From the UHGV virus genome UHGV-1484817: a stretch of 64,000 nucleotides of DNA. The stretch is one strand, 5' to 3'. Position numbers and translations under genes: made by a program. This stretch comes from a virus. Below are positions 14,867 through 59,583 of this stretch, piece by piece (positions within the stretch are counted from its first letter, which is position 1; the number at the start of each line of letters is the position of its first letter). Under the pieces are notes generated by a model, which worked only from the letters and a program-made list of their open reading frames with translations, did no database searches and was not told the origin of the DNA.

Positions 14867-14882
14867 AGATTTATTAGAGCAA
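14867..14882. promoter_or_regulatory. C1-type operator
   Basis: GATTTATTAGAGCAAT, reverse-orientation match to the operator consensus, upstream of the minus-strand block starting at 14688. Confidence 0.55.
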
Positions 14883-15389
14883 TTATTGTTGATGAAGAAG
14901 CGCATTTTCATATTCCCTGACCATTAACGTAAGTACGCCGTGACTCCTGAAAACACGCGCCACTTCAATCTTATCTTCCAGCGCGAACGCAATTTTACTT
15001 AGACCAATTTTCTTCAGGAGATCAATCTTTGCAGGGCCGTCATTTCTGTCATCGGTGGCAGGACGCATAGATAGCAAAGGCTCAGCCCCATTTGTTACGT
15101 GCTTACGCAACCAAGCTCGTGTTTTATCCCTGGCTATCTCACAGCGCCCGGTTACAAACCAGAGCGTGTAAATGCTGGACAACTGGCGCACCATATCAAT
15201 AACTGGAGTGATGGGAGCATCAGTGTCACAGGCAAGGTTAAACTCGTTCCAGTGCTCTGTTAATGCACCTTTGCCAGGTGGTGGAAGTAAATGCAGCCTG
15301 TCTTCCGTTGCCTCTGATATCGTCCCATCAATATCTACTATGACGATGTACGGACGTTCCTGGTGTGCGTGTTTATTGAAAATACTCAA
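14883..15389 (-). CDS. HAD-superfamily phosphatase-like protein
   Basis: 168-aa ORF with IVDIDGTI (DxDGT) motif near the N-terminus. Confidence 0.6.
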   Translation of the reverse strand: MSIFNKHAHQERPYIVIVDIDGTISEATEDRLHLLPPPGKGALTEHWNEFNLACDTDAPITPVIDMVRQLSSIYTLWFVTGRCEIARDKTRAWLRKHVTNGAEPLLSMRPATDDRNDGPAKIDLLKKIGLSKIAFALEDKIEVARVFRSHGVLTLMVREYENALLHQQ

Positions 15390-31050: not shown

Positions 31051-31078
31051 ATTACACTAATAAATTTATTAGAGCAAT
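31051..31078. promoter_or_regulatory. Overlapping bipartite C1 operator around a perfect palindrome
   Basis: ATTACACTAATAAATTTATTAGAGCAAT: 15/17 forward match overlapping a 17/17 reverse match, centred on CTAATAAATTTATTAG; overlaps the dmt stop codon and precedes the tRNA leader. Confidence 0.65.
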
Positions 31079-50034: not shown

Positions 50035-50051
50035 GAAATTTATTAGAGCAA
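50035..50051. promoter_or_regulatory. C1-type operator (Op53-like) for the kilA-repL operon
   Basis: AAATTTATTAGAGCAAA, 16/17 reverse-orientation match. Confidence 0.6.
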
Positions 50052-50129
50052 ATTTTTCTGACCCGATCCAGATCGGGTTGGACGATCTGCTCAGAAACCT
50101 GCCAGTTTGCTGGCAGGTTTTTTCTTTTG

Positions 50130-51167
50130 TTAACCTATTGCTACTGGTTTTAACAAACCAGCATCAAGTAGCTTGCGAGTTAACCACTGCTGGCCTTTAC
50201 CCGTTAATTGGGGCGTCAGCCGTATCTGGTAGCCATTTTCATCATCCAGCACCACTTCTTTCACCGTGAAATACCCGGCGTTAATGTACTGCTGGCGCGG
50301 TACGTTTTTGCGCGCACCAAAAGCCATGAGAATGCCGTTCTGGCGCAACCATGAGAAAAGGGCGTTTTGCTTAAGTCCAACGACCTTTGCAAAGTTCCCG
50401 ATCAGGATTCCATTGGCCACTGATACCCGGTCGGCAAAATCGACTTTAGGGGCTGCGGCCACCAGCTGTTGTTCCAACTGCATTTTCTGTTCTGCTAACT
50501 CGGCAGCCAGGCGTAGGGCTTCTGGTAATGTCTGGGGGATCGATGGGGTAGGGGAGTTTGCCTGCTGTAATTCTTCCAGTTTGTCGATCAGCGAACGGCG
50601 GACCGCTTTTGACTCGCGCGCGGCGACTCGCAGGGCTTGTTTGAAAGTCATGGTTATGACAAGCATTGATGTTTTGTTCATTTTTTCCACTACACTTTTT
50701 GTGTAGTGCTCACCATCAAGCTCATCGAGTATTTTTTCGATGAATTTGTTGTTCCGAACCTCTGGTTCCCCACATAACTTACGCGCTTCATTGACCATCT
50801 TTAACAGTGTCTGGCTGTCGATTGTGTCTCCAGTGTTGGAGATAACATTCACAGCTGGTGATGGCGTAGCTGAAGCAACAGGTGCTGTTTTTTCAACATT
50901 TAAATTATTACCGGTCATTCTATGTGCCTCCTTTCTCATTTCTGCTGCCACTGTTGCGTAACGTAGACGTCCTTGTTCAATCAAATAATCCCTGATCTCG
51001 GCTATCAGTAGCCTGTTGATCACAGCCTTATCTGTTCGGGTATAAAAACGTCTGGTTATCATGAAATAGTTAGCAATTGCGCCGGGGATCTCCCGTGTCG
51101 GCATACAGGCAGTATGCAAGGCGATCGCTTCGGCTATTTCATTACGGGTGACGAGAGGTGTTTTCAT
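50130..51167 (-). CDS. ant: Antirepressor Ant
   Basis: 345-aa ORF with KilAC-type C-terminus; start overlaps the icd stop; c4-like leader upstream. Confidence 0.8.
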   Translation of the reverse strand: MKTPLVTRNEIAEAIALHTACMPTREIPGAIANYFMITRRFYTRTDKAVINRLLIAEIRDYLIEQGRLRYATVAAEMRKEAHRMTGNNLNVEKTAPVASATPSPAVNVISNTGDTIDSQTLLKMVNEARKLCGEPEVRNNKFIEKILDELDGEHYTKSVVEKMNKTSMLVITMTFKQALRVAARESKAVRRSLIDKLEELQQANSPTPSIPQTLPEALRLAAELAEQKMQLEQQLVAAAPKVDFADRVSVANGILIGNFAKVVGLKQNALFSWLRQNGILMAFGARKNVPRQQYINAGYFTVKEVVLDDENGYQIRLTPQLTGKGQQWLTRKLLDAGLLKPVAIG

Positions 51168-51385
51168 AAACCCCCCTGAACGTCGGCAGAGAAGGGGAGG
51201 CTCCAGTAACTAAGTGAATTGCGCGAGTTAGTTGAAAAACGGGCAGTAAAAATGCAGGGGCCATCAGGCAATTGAGAGCGTGCTTCGTCTTCTGTTGCTG
51301 CGATAACGAAGTGATAGTGGTGTTTTTGGCAGGAGTAAAAGCGCCAGATAAATTCAGGATGAGTAGGGGTAGGGATAGTAGCCAC
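51164..51385 (-). CDS. icd: Icd-like small protein (73 aa)
   Basis: MATIPTPTHPEFIWRFYSCQK...; overlaps the ant start. Confidence 0.65.
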   Translation of the reverse strand: MATIPTPTHPEFIWRFYSCQKHHYHFVIAATEDEARSQLPDGPCIFTARFSTNSRNSLSYWSLPFSADVQGGL

Positions 51386-51389
51386 AATG

Positions 51390-51530
51390 GCAGCCTCCTT
51401 TTGCTAATTTAAGGAGCTACCGCGTGAGGTTCCAATCTCAATGGCGGTAGCACTGACTGGGTTGGAACTACCGGCGCAAAAGGGAACCGGCCTGCCTTTC
51501 GGCAGCCCAGCCAGCACTACCATTGATCTC
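51390..51530 (-). ncRNA. c4: c4-like antisense RNA / structured leader (boundaries approximate)
   Basis: Near-identical to 1205-1345; same hairpins. Confidence 0.4.
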
Positions 51531-51568
51531 GGAGCTATGTGCTACGTATGGTTGTGCGATGGCATGAC

Positions 51569-51593
51569 ACAAAAAAAGACGCTTTTGGCGTCT
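51569..51593 (-). terminator. Rho-independent terminator-like hairpin (minus strand)
   Basis: Same AGACGCCAAAAGCGTCT plus T-run as at 1386-1408. Confidence 0.45.
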
Positions 51594-51882
51594 ATGTCGC
51601 CTTTTGCATTATCCGGGGTTCCAATCCCGGCATCCGTTTTACTAAGATGCCTGTTTAGGATAAACCGAAAATGCATTAGCACGCAAGCAAGTTAATGTAG
51701 CATATGAAGCTAAAAAAATAAAATAATTAGAGCAACTTGCAACCATGTAAATTATTTCTCTGGTAACTAAAATGTATGAGTTTAATTGATATGGGTCAAA
51801 GATTTTGACCATTGCATGGTGAAACTTTATGCTACAAAATGTTATTTTAAGGCGTTTTATCTGTGGCAGGAGATAGTTAATC

Positions 51883-52233
51883 ATGTCATCTGAACATGTT
51901 CGTAAAGGTGTAACAAATGCGAAATTCAATGAAGAGCAATCTAATATTCTCTTTATTGAAATAGGAATTCTGTCAATACTGATAGGTTTAATGTCTAAAT
52001 CATGGTGGGCCTTTGGCGGTTCTTTTCTTGGACTGATTTTTAGTTTAAGAATAAAATTTCTAGCAATACCATTGATGATTGTATTTAGCTTAGTATGGGG
52101 AGCTATTGGCTATAGTATTGGTACTTTGTTTGAATCAACAGCAGCAAGTATTGTTTTGGGGGTAATTGCTTTCCTGAGTGGTTTGGGTACTCATTTTGCT
52201 GCCGTGCAATGGGCAAATGATATTGCAGAATAA
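51883..52233 (+). CDS. Small polytopic membrane protein (AT-rich cassette gene 1)
   Basis: 116-aa ORF with 3-4 predicted TM helices; low GC; preceded by the palindrome GGTCAAAGATTTTGACC at 51794-51810. Confidence 0.5.
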   Translation: MSSEHVRKGVTNAKFNEEQSNILFIEIGILSILIGLMSKSWWAFGGSFLGLIFSLRIKFLAIPLMIVFSLVWGAIGYSIGTLFESTAASIVLGVIAFLSGLGTHFAAVQWANDIAE

Positions 52234-52255
52234 TTACAGATAAGAAGCGAAAAGA

Positions 52256-52732
52256 ATGAATATGAGATGGTTTTTATTATTTGTATCGTTAGTTTCAGCA
52301 GGAACATTTGCAAAAATTGATCCTCTACAATGGAATGTAATTGAAGAGAGAGGGGGGAGAGAATATACAATCCATAATCATAATGGTGATAAGATAAGTT
52401 TTTTATGTGATATGGGATTCATGTATGGTTCACCAGATAGTGCAGGTAGTTTAGGCTTGTTGCTAAGTTCGTCGAATAATAAAAAAGAGTATAATGCTGA
52501 CAAGAATAAAATAGTATTAACTATAGATGGTGATCAATATCCTTTTAGCAATCTTGGATCAATGGTTGGAGATTCTTGGTGGTATGCCTTTTGGCAAGAT
52601 GCAGCAGATTCAAATGCTAATATGATTGATGCTTATGTTGATAATGAAAAAATTGCTACATTCCCTCTTTCTGGGCTAAGTAAGTTGTATCAACAAGCCA
52701 AAATGGATGGATGTATTAAACGAGGCAAATGA
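52256..52732 (+). CDS. Secreted/periplasmic protein (AT-rich cassette gene 2)
   Basis: N-terminal signal peptide MNMRWFLLFVSLVSAGTFA; two Cys; low GC. Confidence 0.5.
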   Translation: MNMRWFLLFVSLVSAGTFAKIDPLQWNVIEERGGREYTIHNHNGDKISFLCDMGFMYGSPDSAGSLGLLLSSSNNKKEYNADKNKIVLTIDGDQYPFSNLGSMVGDSWWYAFWQDAADSNANMIDAYVDNEKIATFPLSGLSKLYQQAKMDGCIKRGK

Positions 52733-52806
52733 TCTTTCTGTGTTAAAGATTAACGCAATCAATAAAACATTGGTTGCGTAATATTCTATTATAGAAATGG
52801 AATAAT

Positions 52807-53841
52807 ATGACAAAAATTACTAATTCTAATGAGTTGAAGTTGCTGTATAAACAGTCAGTGCTCATTCCATCATACAAAGATCACGTAGCGATCTTGCAAA
52901 AACAATTAGGAATAGAAAAACATTCTTTTCAAAATATGCCAAGATTGAATAGACAAGCTGTAATTAGTAACTCTCTTCGAAAACAATTGGCTAGTATACC
53001 GAACTTGGCTGGAATAGGCAGCAAGTATCGTGAACATATCGCGATTTTACAGAAACAGACTCAGGCTCTTTTCCCTCATGATGCAAATAGATATATTCAA
53101 ATGCTAAGGAAACAGGCCGAAATAGCTATGCCATTACGAAAACAGCTTGAGGTGCTTAATAAGCAAGCTGGTTTAAATAACATGCAAGCGATACTTAAAG
53201 AATTACAACAAAGTGCAAGTTATAAAATAGATGTAAGCCAAGACATAAAGAAAGTACTAGATCACTATGCTAGAACAAGAAATGCTTCATTACATCAAAT
53301 AATAGAGCAGGGGATTTCATCTATTGCGCAGGCTTATGCTGAAGGTGCTACTGAAACATCACACACCAAAAGTAATGTTCAAAATAAAGGATTAAATAAA
53401 CCTAGCTCAAAGTTTGTTGATTCATTTAAAGAGCTTCCTTATCCACTGCAATGGTTACTAATGGTTATATTTTCTCAAGTTGTGTTTGGTGCTTTTATTG
53501 ATTACGGAAAAGAGAAAACCTTGCTGGGAATACACAAGGCAGAATCATATTTTATATCTCTGTTTGAGGATAAACCAATATCAAAACAACAATTAATTAA
53601 AGAAAACAAAGAAATTAGTTGGGAAGATCTCAATGGTTTTCGTTTTATAACTGGTGAGAACGTAAGATTACACGTCAGTCCTTCTATAAATAGTGAGGTG
53701 ATTGAATGCATTGGCAAAAATACTATAGTGGCTGTTTTAGATAAAAAAGATCGCCAATGGCTTTTCGTGCAGGTTAAATCAGGGGACGAGTTTATTACTG
53801 GATGGATTACACGAACATACACAAAGCCTCTTAAGGCTTGA
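52807..53841 (+). CDS. Membrane-anchored protein with C-terminal SH3b-like domain (AT-rich cassette gene 3)
   Basis: Repeated (H/A)ILQKQ and LRKQ motifs N-terminally, one TM helix (LQWLLMVIFSQVVFGAFI), C-terminal SH3b-like segment. Confidence 0.5.
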   Translation: MTKITNSNELKLLYKQSVLIPSYKDHVAILQKQLGIEKHSFQNMPRLNRQAVISNSLRKQLASIPNLAGIGSKYREHIAILQKQTQALFPHDANRYIQMLRKQAEIAMPLRKQLEVLNKQAGLNNMQAILKELQQSASYKIDVSQDIKKVLDHYARTRNASLHQIIEQGISSIAQAYAEGATETSHTKSNVQNKGLNKPSSKFVDSFKELPYPLQWLLMVIFSQVVFGAFIDYGKEKTLLGIHKAESYFISLFEDKPISKQQLIKENKEISWEDLNGFRFITGENVRLHVSPSINSEVIECIGKNTIVAVLDKKDRQWLFVQVKSGDEFITGWITRTYTKPLKA

Positions 53842-53970
53842 ATTTTATCACCGTATCTTGGGGCTGGGTGTTGATGACGATGTGCTACTTGAAGTACTTG
53901 GGTTTTTTAACGCAGCATCTGAAATGTGTAGACTGACCGGTAACAAATGACAACTCGTAGAATCGGGTAA

Positions 53971-54561
<591 letters not shown>

Positions 54562-54571
54562 GGGGGCTGAT

Positions 54572-55183
54572 ATGGGGCTTAATGTTGCTTCAGTAAAGTC
54601 TTATGTATCTTCGGCATTAACGACGACATTATTTGGCTCCGGCGTTGGTGAGCGGGAAGTTGGTAAGCTGACGTCAATCATCATGAACAAAATGCTGTTC
54701 GCGCAAGGATGGCAGTTCTCTGTCGAAGTTGATGGTCTGGAGGGGGCAGACTTCTTTGCTAAAGACATTACCTACCACGATTACAGCATCGAATATGAAA
54801 CGATTAAAATCGGCGGAGGGAATATCCTTCAGCCAACGGAGCGTTCGCCTGGGCAGATAACAATGATGGTCAGGGATACCGTTGATGGCCTCGTTTTGGA
54901 CTGGTTTAAGACGGCAAAAAGTCGGGTGATCAATCCGGACGGTACCGGGAATATACCGTCTAAATATTTGCTCAATGTGCGTATTTATCGGTTGCTGTCC
55001 TCCGGTTTAACCAAACTGGAAAATGAGATGACGGTATTCCCGGTCACTACCGGCGATGTCACCTATGCGCGGGATCAGGTTACGGAATTTAAGTCATTCC
55101 CAATGACCTTCGCATTGCACAGCACGTTTAACCAATCCTCAAGTTCTTTAGCTTCCCTTCTGGGCTTTAGTTTTTCGCTTTAA
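54572..55183 (+). CDS. Hypothetical tail-module protein
   Basis: 203-aa ORF tightly following the previous gene. Confidence 0.45.
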   Translation: MGLNVASVKSYVSSALTTTLFGSGVGEREVGKLTSIIMNKMLFAQGWQFSVEVDGLEGADFFAKDITYHDYSIEYETIKIGGGNILQPTERSPGQITMMVRDTVDGLVLDWFKTAKSRVINPDGTGNIPSKYLLNVRIYRLLSSGLTKLENEMTVFPVTTGDVTYARDQVTEFKSFPMTFALHSTFNQSSSSLASLLGFSFSL

Positions 55184-56160: not shown

Positions 56161-59100
56161 ATGGAAAGAAAAAACGCCAACATTGACGATGTGATAAGGA
56201 CGGTTGAAACCGCCAGCGCAAAAGAGCTGGAAGAGCTTGCAGGTATCCGGGAAGCTGTTGAAGATTTGAAAGGGGGACGCGTTGCAACTGTTGATCCTGT
56301 CTCTCGCAGTGTGTCGGCATTAAATCGCACAATCGAAAATTCCCGGCCAGACTTTGTGGCCAATGCGCCATCAGTGGACCCTATTGTTGAGGCAATGAAA
56401 CGGCTTAATTTAGGGGACGTTTCTCGTGTAGTTCAGGAGGATGTTGCTCTACAGGAACCGCAGGCCAAATCAACTACGCGAAAGGGTAAAAAACGACGCA
56501 AGAAGGCTATAACAGAAGATGTAAAGGCGCAACGGACCGAAGCAGCCGAACACGCTCGCGAAATGTTCGGTCAAAAAGGCGGTGCGCAAAAAAGCCAAAA
56601 CCAACGCGATGCGCGTGGTCGTTTTATTGGAAAGCCAGGGAGTAAGGCCGCAGCGGAAGATGCCCGTGCTGAACGTGCTGAAAAGGCCAGGCGCAAAGAG
56701 GATGATGAGCGTCTAAATGCTGAATCAGGTTTATTAAAAAAACTGTCAAAAGTAGCTGAAGGCATAGGTAACCCTTCAGAGACTCGTGCCGTCGATGCGT
56801 TAGGTTATGCTGTTGCTGGTCCATTGTGGGCAGCAGGGAAGGAGCTTGGCGGGATATCAAAAGAAGTTGGTGGATCGCTTAATGGTGCCAGAAAGTCTAT
56901 TGCCGATGTGATTCGTGGCAATGACGATAACAGCCGTAGAAAAGGTTTTTTTAGGCGTAAATCGCAAAATAGTGCCGATGTCGTTCAGGTTAACACCCAA
57001 AAACGGACGGTTCAGGAACTTCAGGAGCAGACCAGCGAAATTAAAGAGGGCAATGACAAGATTCTCAGCGCCCTTGATCAGATAGCCAAAAACACCGGGA
57101 AAAAGAAGGGCGGCTTGCTGTCTAAACTATTTAGCCTGTTAGGGAAGGGGGCCGGTGGCGTCGCGTCGTTGTTAATGGGGCGTGGCATGCTGAAAAAAGC
57201 TGGAGCACTCGCTTTTGGCGCTCTGGGGGCAAAGAGACTCGTAGGAATGCTACGCGGTGGGGGCAAGAAGACTCTCGCCCATGAAGGCGGAGATTTGGCT
57301 GCCCGGGCAGCAGGTAAACTTGGATTAAAGGCAGTTGGTAAAGGGGCGTTACGCGCAATTCCCCTAGTCGGCACAGTGGCTGGAGGTATTTATGATGCGG
57401 TAACCGGTTGGAATGATACAGAAGCGCAACGTCGAGCGTTTGGGCTTAAATCAGGACAAGATCCATCATTCCAGCAAAAAGCCGCTTATACGTTAGCCAA
57501 TGTTCTTGATTTGGGGGGACTGGTATCTGGTATTAGCAGTGCTATTGGTGATGTTCTCAAATCACTTGGATTTGAGGATATCGGCAATATGTTGCAATCA
57601 TTTTCGACGGAAAGTATTGCCCAGGCCATTGATAGCGGGGTTACCAACTTAGAAACATATATTTCTAACCTTGGCGACACCATTTCTACCAAGTTCGATG
57701 ATTACACAGCAAAGATTGGTGATGCTGTTTCAGCATGGTTTAGCGATACATCTAATAAGTTGCTTGAAAAGCTGGATGCCATCAAAGACTTCTTTACTGT
57801 CGATAACCTGAAACAGGTTTTCAGTGATGCAATTGATAGTGCAATTGACTTCATTAAGAACCCAGGGAAACACATTAAAGAGGCGGCTGGTAATATTTGG
57901 GATGGGGTTAAAAATTTACCCGGTAAAGCATTAGATGCAGCGGTTGATGCCGTTAAAAATACCCCTGCGGCAATGATTGTATCAAAAATACCCAATCCGA
58001 TCGGCGAGGCTAATGCAAAAGAAATCACTCCAGAGTTAAAAGCTCCGGTTAATAGCCACCAGGAGACATCTGATTCTAAAACTGAATCCGATGCTAAACA
58101 GACTAATATTGCTACCCGCGTGATAAATGCGGCACTGGACACGGCGAAAGATAGCAATAAAACAGTTAAAGAAACTGCCAATCAGATTATCAATGCAAAT
58201 GCCGTAGAAATGGGCAATAGCGCGGTGCGGAAAATTGATTCAGCTATTGGACAAAATAGCTCGTCATCATCGTCGCGTAATACCACCGGCACTGGGAATG
58301 ACATTCAGAAAGCTGCTGATACCTACAATAATGGCAACTTAGATGTAAAAGTCGGAAGCCTTGGCGCTGAAGGTAAGGCAAATCTCGATAAGTTAGCTCC
58401 GTATTTTGCTGAACTAGAGAATAAATATGGTCTTCCTGAAGGCACTCTTTACGCGATTGCTGCAACTGAATCAGGAGGGGATCCTAACGCAAAGTCTCCG
58501 CTTACAAGATCACCAGATGGAAAGTTAAGTGGTGGCGCACTCGGGATGTTCCAGTTTACGCGCGTTGCTCGTGAGGAAACTGGATTATCCCGGGAAGATT
58601 CTTTTAATCCGGAAAAATCGGCAGAAGCTGCGGCTCTTCTCATGAGCAAGTATCTGAAGCAAGCCAATGGAGACTTAAACGAGGCCATCACTGCATATAA
58701 CGCTGGGTTTGGCACTATTAATAAGTGGAAAAAAGGCACCGGTGACTTATCGAAGGAAAACCGTGAGTACGCGATCAAGGTCAATACTCATCGTGCTCGC
58801 TATTTAGGTGGTGAAATCTATACACCTGGGGCAGGAGCACAGGGTGGGGCGCAATATGGAGTGAGGGAACCACTACCTGATAACGCCGTTATCGATCAGT
58901 CTACTGGTCTGGCGTTTACCCCTGGTGATAGCCCGTTTGAGAAAGGCGGTTTGGTAGACAAAATCGGCAATGCTGTTGGCGTTAACGATCTGGTCAACAA
59001 ATTCATGAATGGCCGGGGTATGCGTCGGGAAGTCGTTCAGGGAACGCTCGAAGAACGTGCACGAGGGAAGGGGACCGCAACAGCAGCTGGCAATGTGTAT

Positions 59101-59583
59101 GTTAATACTCCGATGCCAGTTGAAGAGGCGCGTCCGGTGGCCAGCAACTCAAGTTACTTTGACCAACTCGGCGCACAAATGGGGATTGATGGACTATTCG
59201 ATAAACTCCGCAACTCGCCGGGGATGCGGAAAAATAATGCGCCTGAACCAGCCTCCACGTCCCAGGTGACGACTGCCGCCAACGATTTGCAGCAACCAAC
59301 CGGTCGTATGCAGATAGACGGGCAGGTTATTAGTGACCTTGGCGGTTCCGGTGCCAAGCCGACAATGCAGTTGGCTGATAATACCGTTTCACTTGATGGT
59401 GAAACGAAGCGGCTGTTTGCGCAGATGACCTCATTGCTTGCCAGGATTGAAGAGCACACCAAAGACTCGGCGAAAGGCCAGGGAACTGTCGTAAAGGTCA
59501 GCACGCCTCAGCCGGGCGTTATGCGCACGGTACCACTGTCAATTGATGATCCGTTGATGAATGACTACGCGAGAGTTGATTGA
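56161..59583 (+). CDS. sit: Tail tape-measure-like protein with lytic transglycosylase domain (Sit)
   Basis: 1140-aa ORF, Gly/Ala/Lys-rich, with SLT-domain block GALGMFQFTRVAREETGL ... AYNAGFGTINKWKKG. Confidence 0.85.
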   Translation: MERKNANIDDVIRTVETASAKELEELAGIREAVEDLKGGRVATVDPVSRSVSALNRTIENSRPDFVANAPSVDPIVEAMKRLNLGDVSRVVQEDVALQEPQAKSTTRKGKKRRKKAITEDVKAQRTEAAEHAREMFGQKGGAQKSQNQRDARGRFIGKPGSKAAAEDARAERAEKARRKEDDERLNAESGLLKKLSKVAEGIGNPSETRAVDALGYAVAGPLWAAGKELGGISKEVGGSLNGARKSIADVIRGNDDNSRRKGFFRRKSQNSADVVQVNTQKRTVQELQEQTSEIKEGNDKILSALDQIAKNTGKKKGGLLSKLFSLLGKGAGGVASLLMGRGMLKKAGALAFGALGAKRLVGMLRGGGKKTLAHEGGDLAARAAGKLGLKAVGKGALRAIPLVGTVAGGIYDAVTGWNDTEAQRRAFGLKSGQDPSFQQKAAYTLANVLDLGGLVSGISSAIGDVLKSLGFEDIGNMLQSFSTESIAQAIDSGVTNLETYISNLGDTISTKFDDYTAKIGDAVSAWFSDTSNKLLEKLDAIKDFFTVDNLKQVFSDAIDSAIDFIKNPGKHIKEAAGNIWDGVKNLPGKALDAAVDAVKNTPAAMIVSKIPNPIGEANAKEITPELKAPVNSHQETSDSKTESDAKQTNIATRVINAALDTAKDSNKTVKETANQIINANAVEMGNSAVRKIDSAIGQNSSSSSSRNTTGTGNDIQKAADTYNNGNLDVKVGSLGAEGKANLDKLAPYFAELENKYGLPEGTLYAIAATESGGDPNAKSPLTRSPDGKLSGGALGMFQFTRVAREETGLSREDSFNPEKSAEAAALLMSKYLKQANGDLNEAITAYNAGFGTINKWKKGTGDLSKENREYAIKVNTHRARYLGGEIYTPGAGAQGGAQYGVREPLPDNAVIDQSTGLAFTPGDSPFEKGGLVDKIGNAVGVNDLVNKFMNGRGMRREVVQGTLEERARGKGTATAAGNVYVNTPMPVEEARPVASNSSYFDQLGAQMGIDGLFDKLRNSPGMRKNNAPEPASTSQVTTAANDLQQPTGRMQIDGQVISDLGGSGAKPTMQLADNTVSLDGETKRLFAQMTSLLARIEEHTKDSAKGQGTVVKVSTPQPGVMRTVPLSIDDPLMNDYARVD

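Follow-up and report, generated by a model that had tools for sequence, protein, structure and literature searches.

A low-GC three-gene set for predicted envelope proteins occupies the sim slot of a P1-type phage-plasmid

Gene content, composition and borders of the cassette

The region considered here is a segment of approximately 2.2 kb in a 64,000-nucleotide stretch of the virus genome UHGV-1484817; the whole stretch is referred to below as the window. The segment carries three genes, p1, p2 and p3, which together are called the cassette. The source element is a P1-type (Punavirus) phage-plasmid; in a megablast search with positions 51000-54600, P1, P7, SJ46, RCS47 and their relatives were matched at 97-99% identity. 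The matches to the P1/P7 relatives were confined to icd/ant1 on the left and to the sequence from approximately position 53942 on the right, which holds the late-promoter region and pmgC, and for the 2.5 kb between these flanks a search of 50,697 phage records found nothing, also when sensitive blastn and tblastn of p3 were used. The three genes are as follows.

51883..52233, plus strand: p1, a polytopic inner-membrane protein of 116 residues (open reading frame (ORF), hydropathy, PHROG 15014; AGGAG lies 11 nucleotides before the ATG)
52256..52732, plus strand: p2, a secreted periplasmic protein of 158 residues, YfjT/YkfB family (PF27224) (signal peptide at residues 1-19; PHROG 3429)
52807..53841, plus strand: p3, a bitopic membrane protein of 344 residues (ORF, PHROG 7086, SH3_3 match, hydropathy)

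All three genes are opposed to icd/ant1/kilA and co-directional with pmgC/tub/pmgB/sit. The GC content is 0.343 for positions 51700-53940 and 0.482 for the rest of the window, and it stays between 0.32 and 0.36 over 51600-53800. The cassette thus has the lowest GC of all 2.2-kb windows (5th percentile, 0.439), and outside it no 1-kb window falls below 0.39. Similarly, the GC at third codon positions (GC3) is 0.22-0.27 in p1, p2 and p3, against 0.46-0.53 in ant1, icd, kilA, pmgC, tub and pmgB. A preliminary description of this DNA, made from the letters and the reading frames, had reported a sharp drop in composition and three co-directional plus-strand genes of 116, 158 and 344 residues opposite to the flanking immunity genes; both are confirmed by the windowed GC and GC3 values and the gene map. 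The protein features that it listed (a polytopic p1, a signal peptide on p2, and repeats, one transmembrane (TM) segment and an SH3b-like end in p3) are also as described, with a borderline SH3_3 score, and all three products are predicted envelope proteins.

The left flank of the cassette is the C1-controlled c4/icd/ant module, and the right flank is the late promoter of pmgC. The features that mark the two borders are listed below.

51164-51385, minus strand: icd, left flank
51720..51736, minus strand: operator of the C1 repressor (Op51/Oc4 equivalent), GTTGCTCTAATTATTTT, with 3 mismatches to the P1 operator consensus and assigned from the P1 Oc4 annotation
53942..54561, plus strand: right border, where P1-type sequence is back at about 53942 (LPsit equivalent, then pmgC at 53995-54561; megablast to P1/P7 resumes at query position ~2943)

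The operator overlaps the -10 element of a minus-strand, c4-side promoter-like site at 51751-51723. Its core, ATTAGAGCA, is invariant in all six aligned elements, and sequence divergence starts directly past it; on the right, P1 sequence is back before LPsit, which in the P1 annotation lies 32 nucleotides upstream of pmgC. The replaceable segment is therefore approximately 51740-53940. In the same interval, P1 puts simA-simB-simC and P7 puts upf50.5/upf50.0. Megablast and the P1 annotation thus bear out the suggestion that the sim slot is the site of the cassette, which stands there in place of simABC.

Alleles of the sim slot

To survey the slot, 80 IMG/VR loci were fetched by PmgC, and the 68 that also carry icd form the basis of the allele counts. 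One protein of the slot needs introduction. The simA gene of P1 (52 residues) is the truncated 5' end (first 50 residues) of a gene for a signal-peptide protein of 172-215 residues, here called SimA-full (examples: L003:2645-3163, L006:2314-2961 and L007:3401-3970). The slot contents at the 68 loci are as follows.

SimA-full + p2: 17 loci, plus 1 with a split p2
Upf50.5 + Upf50.0 (P7 type): 16 loci
Truncated SimA + SimB + SimC (P1 type): 15 loci
SimA-full + p2 + p3: 8 loci
p1 + p2 + p3 (the cassette): 6 loci
p1 + p2 + DUF4760 on the opposite strand: 3 loci
Other contents: 2 loci

As judged from these sequence comparisons, the cassette is one of about six interchangeable alleles at a known variable, low-GC slot. 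The variability as such has been published: simABC is among eight low-GC, highly variable regions of P1-like phage-plasmids (PMC9603915). The idea of a replacement hot spot is well founded in both respects, with at least six unrelated gene sets in the 68 loci and the published survey. The cassette sequences are themselves public as 'hypothetical protein'. What is described here amounts to a good lead and not to a discovery. Every allele codes only for exported or membrane proteins (SimA-full, SimB, SimC, the lipoprotein Upf50.5, Upf50.0, p1, p2, p3 and the DUF4760 protein). Because its borders vary by no more than a few bases and enclose one or another of at least six sets of envelope genes, the sim locus is a convenient place for finding entry-blocking mechanisms.

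The word 'foreign' in the preliminary description was only partly apt: simB (0.32), simC (0.34) and every other E. coli slot allele are equally AT-rich, and p2-type genes have apparently been in the slot the longest. Members of the p2 family occupy 36 of 68 loci, more than any other family, and their alleles are 29-38% identical to each other, including that of a Cronobacter P1-like phage, whose copy has a GC close to that of its host. In P1, the truncation of simA suggests that simB/simC were inserted later, in place of SimA-full and p2.

Another expectation, that the three genes form a single three-part module, did not hold, since p1, p2 and p3 recombine independently and p3 occurs alone at another locus. 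Their co-occurrence is incomplete, which is not the pattern of an obligate three-gene system: p2 is present without p1 or p3 at 18 of the 68 loci, p1 and p2 occur with DUF4760 in place of p3 at three, and p2 and p3 occur with SimA-full in place of p1 at eight. In nine distant genomes, the p1 homologue has neither p2 nor p3 next to it. Some linkage is nevertheless seen. Within the E. coli P1-like loci, p3 always follows p2 (15/15) and p1 is found only with the window-type p2, and in a divergent P1-like element of Pseudocitrobacter the slot contains a SimA-like gene along with p1 (58%) and p2 (31%), the latter inverted. Given the independent occurrence outside the E. coli P1-like loci, p1, p2 and p3 are separable modules that have come together here, and a loose association of genes that can each be exchanged describes the cassette better than a single obligate machine.

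The allele closest to the cassette shares p1 (98%) and p2 (93%) with the window, and in it DUF4760 on the opposite strand replaces p3. The DUF4760 gene codes for a membrane protein of 297-320 residues (GC 0.32), lies on the minus strand (L002:5145-6038 and L003:5340-6302) and in some alleles replaces or follows p3; its product had no PADLOC match and matched only PHROGs of unknown function. At one locus, L074 (IMGVR_UViG_2913167280_000003), p2 of the L003 type and p3 are followed by a 3' fragment of the window-type p2 and by DUF4760. This arrangement suggests a recombination scar, with alleles exchanged by crossovers in or beside p2.

The P1 tail block was found in 473 of 5,426 complete E. coli genomes (~9%), in which the backbone genes are at least 95% identical. 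The full cassette is present in 37 of these ~473 P1-bearing genomes; some part of it is found in 113 complete E. coli genomes, and 27 PLSDB plasmids carry the full cassette. With presence in 6 of 68 loci and 37 of ~473 genomes, the cassette does not behave as a conserved core of typical composition. The flanks of the slot are 97-100% identical. More than 30 plasmids, with sources that include humans, poultry, dogs, cattle, water and produce, have all reading frames undamaged and at 99-100% identity, and the probability that the cassette is simply decaying is, in view of these near-identical copies, small. In E. coli 06-00048, the cassette is found at 99.6% identity on both the chromosome record (NZ_CP015229.1 1824318-1826558) and a 136-kb plasmid record (NZ_CP012497.1 100565-102805), which may reflect integration of a P1-like copy, a duplication or an error of assembly.

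The p2 protein belongs to the YfjT/YkfB family

The N-terminus of p2, MNMRWFLLFVSLVSAGTFA followed by K, was read directly as a signal peptide, and residues 1-20 are disordered in the AlphaFold2 (AF2) model, which has an overall confidence (pLDDT) of 82. Two cysteines, C51 and C153, show little or no variation among 35 sequences and probably form a disulfide bond. The preliminary description stated that none of the three proteins has a motif tied to a known function. It is correct that no characterised function was matched; p2, however, belongs to a named family. The cluster representative P0001, 98% identical to p2, carries PF27224, the PGAP name for p2 is 'YfjT/YkfB family phage-associated protein', and 209 PF27224 proteins named YkfB or YfjT were retrieved by the p2 profile search. 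In BLASTP, p2 is 26-28% identical to K-12 YfjT over ~140 residues (E 1e-6), and sister alleles reach E-values down to 1e-10. The length of ~155 residues, the N-terminal signal peptide and the conserved cysteine pair of the family are all found in p2. YfjT and YkfB, from the K-12 cryptic prophages CP4-57 and CP4-6, share with it the length, the signal peptide and the invariant W, G, C...F and Y...C columns. It is worth noting that the Pfam and NCBIfam versions used for our scans did not include the PF27224 model.

The gene context differs between the two settings. The chromosomal YfjT/YkfB genes follow a lipoprotein gene (YfjS/YafY) and a gene for a small membrane protein (YpjK), while the gene before p2 is p1, for which BLAST shows no relationship to YpjK. 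Since the family is without known function, membership gives no mechanism for p2. The closest fold is that of the Bartonella invasion-associated protein B, a weak match, and no fold similarity to the periplasmic lysozyme/transglycosylase inhibitors Ivy, MliC/PliC and PliG was found. Homologues of p2 also occur in strictly lytic Serratia jumbo phages, where depositors have labelled them 'adhesin'.

The p3 protein combines a variable repeat region with a conserved membrane anchor

The p3 protein consists of a basic, helical, repeat-rich N-terminal region (residues 1-205, net charge +14) with the motifs AILQKQ, LRKQ and LNKQ, a TM segment at 213-234, a linker and a C-terminal SH3b-like region at 285-338. 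The last of these matches SH3_3 (PF08239) with E 1.1e-5 and 26.0 bits against a cut-off of 27, covering 52 of the 54 profile positions. A search recovered 48 homologues, on contigs of ~70-100 kb from Escherichia, Citrobacter, Salmonella, Pseudocitrobacter and Yersinia, and a precomputed PF08239 call stands on every listed homologue except P0005 and P0012. The AF2 model has a pLDDT of 39 overall and places five beta-strands at 286-335 with pLDDT below 55; a sequence search of the PDB with the C-terminal 101 residues gave only noise. Taken together, the C-terminus is a probable SH3b domain by profile matching. Compared with endolysin and NlpC-P60 proteins that carry SH3b (PF08239), p3 has no catalytic domain and is TM-tethered behind a variable repeat region of ~200 residues.

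The two halves of p3 have evolved very differently. The C-terminal 139 residues are 51-100% identical within the family, but the N-terminal 200 are only 10-98% identical, with repeats that vary in type and number. Most likely, the repeat region is cytoplasmic and the SH3b-like domain faces the periplasm and peptidoglycan, because p3 has no signal peptide, a 210-residue domain with a charge of +14 would be hard to export, and SH3b has a role in peptidoglycan binding.

Outside the slot, a solitary p3 homologue is found in P1-related elements of Citrobacter and Salmonella (~84-100 kb), where it has a low GC (0.33-0.37 vs 0.48) and lies on the strand opposite to its neighbours. It adjoins homologues of window positions 16.2-20.2 kb (the pmgM-pmgS/pphA block), and no p2 is nearby. 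The copies at this other insertion place are L098 4001-5446, L099 4001-5350 and L101 4001-5053. A solitary, low-GC gene on the opposite strand would have the usual look of a prophage-expressed moron. Some of the Citrobacter and Salmonella copies have long N-terminal tandem repeats (SVSLSERITKLAQGSTIAD). On a Yersinia plasmid contig, a p3 homologue follows umuDC.

The p1 protein is a widespread small membrane protein

The p1 protein has a conserved N-terminus, VRKGVTNAKFNEE, followed by three or four Gly-rich hydrophobic/TM segments according to hydropathy and alignment, and falls into PHROG 15014, which is annotated as unknown function. An exhaustive HMMER search gave 297 representatives at E<=1e-3 and 135 at E<=1e-10. 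Some family members have N-terminal zinc ribbons, which implies that the N-terminus of p1 is cytoplasmic. The query for the locus search was a subset of 6 sequences, the p1 alignment with all 39 being too diverse for this purpose. Homologues 42-63% identical to p1 were found in Deltaproteobacteria, Bacillota, Pseudomonas, Shewanella, Rhodanobacter and Ignavibacteria (loci L089-L097).

At five of these nine distant loci, the p1-family gene adjoins defence-type genes, an uncontrolled and anecdotal count. Four of the neighbourhoods were confirmed by Pfam/PADLOC, namely, NERD+UvrD, a DUF6602/NucC-like nuclease, Fic/SoFic and Cas3c+WYL; the fifth (L089) is a putative PIN-type toxin-antitoxin pair, read only from the N-terminal sequences of two short ORFs. 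The neighbours differ at every one of the nine loci, and no conserved partner of p1 was found there, outside the P1-like elements. In another phage contig, a p1 homologue lies directly after a divergent repressor pair. Among loci L089-L097, especially L090 and L092, copies from a Bacillota and a Pseudomonas metagenome-assembled genome (MAG) are almost identical over the first 60 residues shown, which points to recent transfer across phyla or to MAG contamination. A colicin-immunity-like identity for p1 was considered from its size and topology and was set aside, as no sequence support was found.

Candidate promoter and hairpins of the cassette

51794..51810, no strand: 7-3-7 inverted repeat GGTCAAA-GAT-TTTGACC (GGTCAAAGATTTTGACC), made of back-to-back TTGACC -35-like hexamers
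51805..51833, plus strand: candidate sigma-70 promoter of the cassette, TTGACC, 17 nucleotides, TATGCT (consensus scan, 9/12 matches), 50 nucleotides upstream of p1
52753..52779, plus strand: hairpin between p2 and p3 with an 11-bp stem and no T-run (terminator-like scan), unlikely to be an efficient terminator
53824..53839, plus strand: short hairpin overlapping the p3 stop codon (terminator-like scan), a weak terminator candidate

The candidate at 51805-51833 is the only plus-strand promoter-like site upstream of p1 in the consensus scan, and its -35 hexamer is the right arm, TTGACC, of the inverted repeat. A consensus scan of the window found no C1 operator in or near the cassette besides 51720-51736. 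If the promoter is real, the position of the nearest C1 operator would imply that the cassette is not under direct C1 control and may be expressed in the lysogen.

The inverted repeat had been presented as a perfect palindrome preceding the first gene. It consists of 7-nucleotide arms with a 3-nucleotide spacer and so falls short of a perfect 17-mer; repeats of the 7-3-7 form occur 10 times in the window, and there are 66 when spacers of 0-6 are allowed, which is not above chance, and the repeat carries no evidential weight. Its candidacy as an operator was rejected on this frequency and because it is imperfect in the closest variant allele (L002); judging from sequence, it is probably not an operator.

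SimA-full resembles a segment of the Sit protein

A segment of SimA-full is similar to residues ~885-973 of Sit, with 36% identity over 99 residues (E 1e-6 in a six-frame search of the window) and the core motif GMRxxxVQGTLEERARGxGT. The SimA-like segment of sit is located as follows.

58813-59079, inside the sit ORF 56161-59583: SimA-like segment, just after the transglycosylase motif of the injection/tape-measure protein

A match to phrog_2533 (positions 927-963 of 1130) is compatible with this likeness if phrog_2533 is the Sit family. On this similarity, SimA-full could be a periplasmic decoy of the injection machinery, and the likeness would support a link between the slot and phage entry, SimA-full itself being absent from the window. 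The Sit motif is identical in all allele classes, and the slot allele therefore does not correlate with the Sit sequence. To see whether p1, p2 or p3 imitate other proteins of the phage, they were compared by tblastn with the whole window, and nothing was found; the likeness to Sit is confined to SimA-full.

Relationship to the P1 Sim system and other exclusion factors

The simABC genes of P1 correspond to the cassette in slot, orientation and borders (the Op51 C1 operator and LPsit-pmgC), and both are transcribed away from c4. They are also alike in their low GC (simB 0.32 and simC 0.34, vs 0.34-0.35), in the signal peptides or TM segments of their products and, on the side of P1, in that sim is non-essential: the genes are not needed for plaque formation (PMC10695390). 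On the other hand, BLASTP of p1, p2 and p3 against SimB and SimC gave no match at E<=1, the Sim proteins fall into PHROGs 14355 and 14329 and those of the cassette into 15014, 3429 and 7086, and the 172-215-residue parent of the truncated P1 simA is absent from the cassette. Sim, unlike the cassette, has a recorded exclusion phenotype; SimC is its processed exclusion protein, and the block typical of Sim comes after adsorption of superinfecting P1 and spares transfection. By these comparisons, the cassette is a variant of the P1 sim locus in position and logic and no member of the Sim system in sequence. The P7 genes upf50.5/upf50.0 provide a similar case; they share slot, orientation, low GC3 and export with the cassette, but Upf50.5 (a lipoprotein) and Upf50.0 (DUF5384) are unrelated to p1-p3.

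The label 'superimmunity' for sim is used in the P1 record, in PMC9603915 and in PMC10695390, and in the P1 record sim are the only genes that bear it. Other envelope-acting exclusion proteins, such as T4 Imm and Sp, P22 SieA, HK97 gp15, T5 Llp and T1 Cor, are small factors encoded by phages or prophages, located in the inner membrane or periplasm or made as lipoproteins, that block wall penetration or DNA entry (PMC10883804, PMC11436027). None of them is homologous to the cassette proteins, and the likeness lies in architecture and context only. Factors of this type are non-essential, AT-rich morons located beside immunity regions.

Possible function of the cassette

From its position and the predicted localisation of its products, we tentatively propose, with a confidence somewhat short of even, that the cassette provides prophage-expressed superinfection exclusion at the envelope. 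The region would then represent one of the alleles found at the polymorphic sim locus, and its genes a low-GC accessory set, passed on horizontally and dispensable for phage growth. Transcription would probably take place in the lysogen from the cassette's own promoter, divergent from the C1-controlled c4 promoter. The role would be like that of P1 Sim: the envelope of the lysogen would be altered, and superinfecting phages could adsorb but would fail to penetrate the cell wall or to deliver their DNA. In this scheme, p2 in the periplasm and the inner-membrane-tethered p3, with its SH3b domain on the peptidoglycan, may hinder wall penetration or channel formation by incoming tails, and p1 may act as an inner-membrane factor similar to T4 Imm, P22 SieA or HK97 gp15. 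The divergence of p2 on near-identical flanks, together with the hypervariable N-terminus of p3 next to its conserved TM-SH3b part, would fit an arms race or frequent allele replacement. The moron-like p3 homologues, the Sit-like segment of SimA-full, the intact copies of the cassette in many plasmids and, as an anecdotal point, the defence-type neighbours of p1 also speak in favour of the proposal.

A number of observations weigh against this proposal. Neither BLASTP nor PADLOC showed homology of p1, p2 or p3 to SimB, SimC or known exclusion and defence proteins; in PADLOC-DB 2.0, p1, p2, p3, DUF4760, SimA-full, SimB and SimC all had no match at E<=0.1. The Pfam and NCBIfam scans of p1-p3 gave no functional family besides the borderline SH3_3, and the PHROGs are of unknown function only. 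For p3, the SH3_3 score falls just below the Pfam cut-off, AF2 gives no confident domain, and the positive-inside count is ambiguous (K+R 1.7 on the N-side vs 2.4 on the C-side), so that it does not support the N-in/C-out topology. The promoter call is weak, as the scan overall is not enriched (7 sites found vs 10.2 expected) and the -10 element of the candidate is changed in L002. The defence-type neighbours of p1 come from only nine loci and a count made without controls. YfjT/YkfB homologues are common in chromosomal CP4-type islands and have no known phage phenotype, and a literature search found no paper on the three families, on the cassette, on the function of YfjT/YkfB or on SH3b exclusion proteins. 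To our knowledge, exclusion by P1 Sim was seen only with the genes cloned in multicopy, which makes the exclusion label of the slot itself thin. The preliminary description, which put the cassette forward as an exclusion or abortive-infection module, is in sum plausible and partly overstated, as it is not clear that the cassette is 'foreign' or that it is one 'module'.

What else might such genes do? They may be lysogenic-conversion morons that benefit the host, acting on envelope or wall physiology (stress, colicins, antimicrobial peptides, serum or adhesion) and kept for the fitness of the plasmid-bearing cell, an explanation that we consider somewhat unlikely. The wide occurrence of YfjT/YkfB in CP4-57/CP4-6-type islands of Enterobacterales, beside a lipoprotein and a small membrane protein and with no known link to phage resistance, speaks for it, as do the 'adhesin' labels of the Serratia phage homologues, the weak resemblance of the p2 fold to the Bartonella protein and the presence of the cassette in clinical, animal and food isolates; moreover, immunity proteins to pore-forming colicins have a size and layout like those of p1 (~115 residues, 3-4 TM segments). 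However, no virulence, colicin-immunity or stress family was matched in Pfam or NCBIfam, 'adhesin' is an unsupported depositor annotation, and the rapid turnover of alleles on a 95-100% identical backbone, together with the Sit-like segment of SimA-full, points to conflict between phages. If p1 and/or p3 damaged the membrane once the p3 repeats sensed phage proteins, the infected cell would die or arrest; abortive infection of this kind is in our view distinctly unlikely. Here, the Cas3c+WYL, NERD+UvrD, NucC-like and Fic neighbours of the p1 family, with the PIN-type pair at L089 that is putative and read from sequence only, are of interest, and the near-identity of p1 in the Bacillota and Pseudomonas MAGs would be typical of mobile defence cargo. 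The N-terminus of p3 is hypervariable, with a variable repeat number on a conserved anchor, and if p3 is oriented N-in, this variable part would be cytoplasmic and could meet only intracellular phage products. Nevertheless, PADLOC returned no match, no effector domain is recognisable, and the cassette holds no gene pairing of the toxin-antitoxin kind. The three genes occur independently, and p1, whose neighbours are different at each locus, is therefore not part of a fixed system.

It is very unlikely that the cassette products are accessory factors of the phage's own lytic cycle, in which the SH3b protein and periplasmic partners would aid lysis, tail assembly or injection. The cassette is read in the same direction as the late tail operon pmgC-tub-pmgB-sit, which follows it directly and is separated from it by no more than weak hairpins, and p2 homologues exist in strictly lytic Serratia jumbo phages. 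SH3b is the classic cell-wall-binding module of endolysins. A standalone SH3 protein has been proposed as an auxiliary part of the lysis module in Drexlerviridae, which are T1-like phages (PMC13164509). Against this stand the dispensable and interchangeable contents of the slot, with P1, P7 and most relatives viable without p1 and p3, and the late promoter, which lies downstream and not upstream of the cassette. The lysis genes of P1 lie elsewhere on the map and not in the neighbourhood of the cassette.

Within the exclusion proposal, a more specific scheme may be considered, in which p3 is a new exclusion protein whose conserved SH3b domain pins it to the peptidoglycan at the entry site while its hypervariable repeat array sets which phages are blocked, p2 and SimA-full are periplasmic decoys or binders of the tail tip, and the sim slot is a module-swapping gatekeeper locus for DNA entry. 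This scheme in its full form is unlikely; if it were true, the YfjT/YkfB proteins encoded by cryptic prophages of E. coli K-12 would have their first assigned function. More generally, P1-type phage-plasmids spread resistance genes, and the entry of phages and plasmids into their carriers depends partly on exclusion functions. Study of the slot could give a first function to the p1, YfjT/YkfB and TM-SH3b families, which are widespread and of which one is found in E. coli K-12 itself.

The adjoining immunity region and other features

Two RNA genes lie to the left of the cassette.

51440..51527, minus strand: C4 antisense RNA of the immI module (Rfam RF01695, 76.7 bits, E 1.4e-14), outside the cassette and given for context
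51572..51650, minus strand: isrK-like small RNA upstream of c4 (Rfam RF01394, 58.3 bits, E 3.2e-11), at the end of the immI-side sequence

The immI leader (51385-51700) is D6-like and not of the P1 or P7 type, with phage D6 matching 51237-51651 at 87.7%, and in an alignment with P1 and P7 the c4 region differs from theirs. The same c4 type as in the window is found at L002. These sequences suggest a possible third c4/ant immunity specificity, which moves along with those slot alleles that contain p1. A minus-strand ORF of 95 residues at 51642-51929, which overlaps the promoter region, was judged spurious.

On the other side of the cassette, a 21-nucleotide inverted repeat (53948-53994, 86% complementary, 5-nucleotide loop) lies directly upstream of the pmgC start codon, in the conserved late-promoter/leader region. 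Finally, the C1-operator consensus with <=3 mismatches gave 12 sites in the window, against 0.29 expected by chance; they include 31062-31078, 14867-14883, 34584-34600 and 50036-50052 and provide a candidate map of the C1 regulon of the element.

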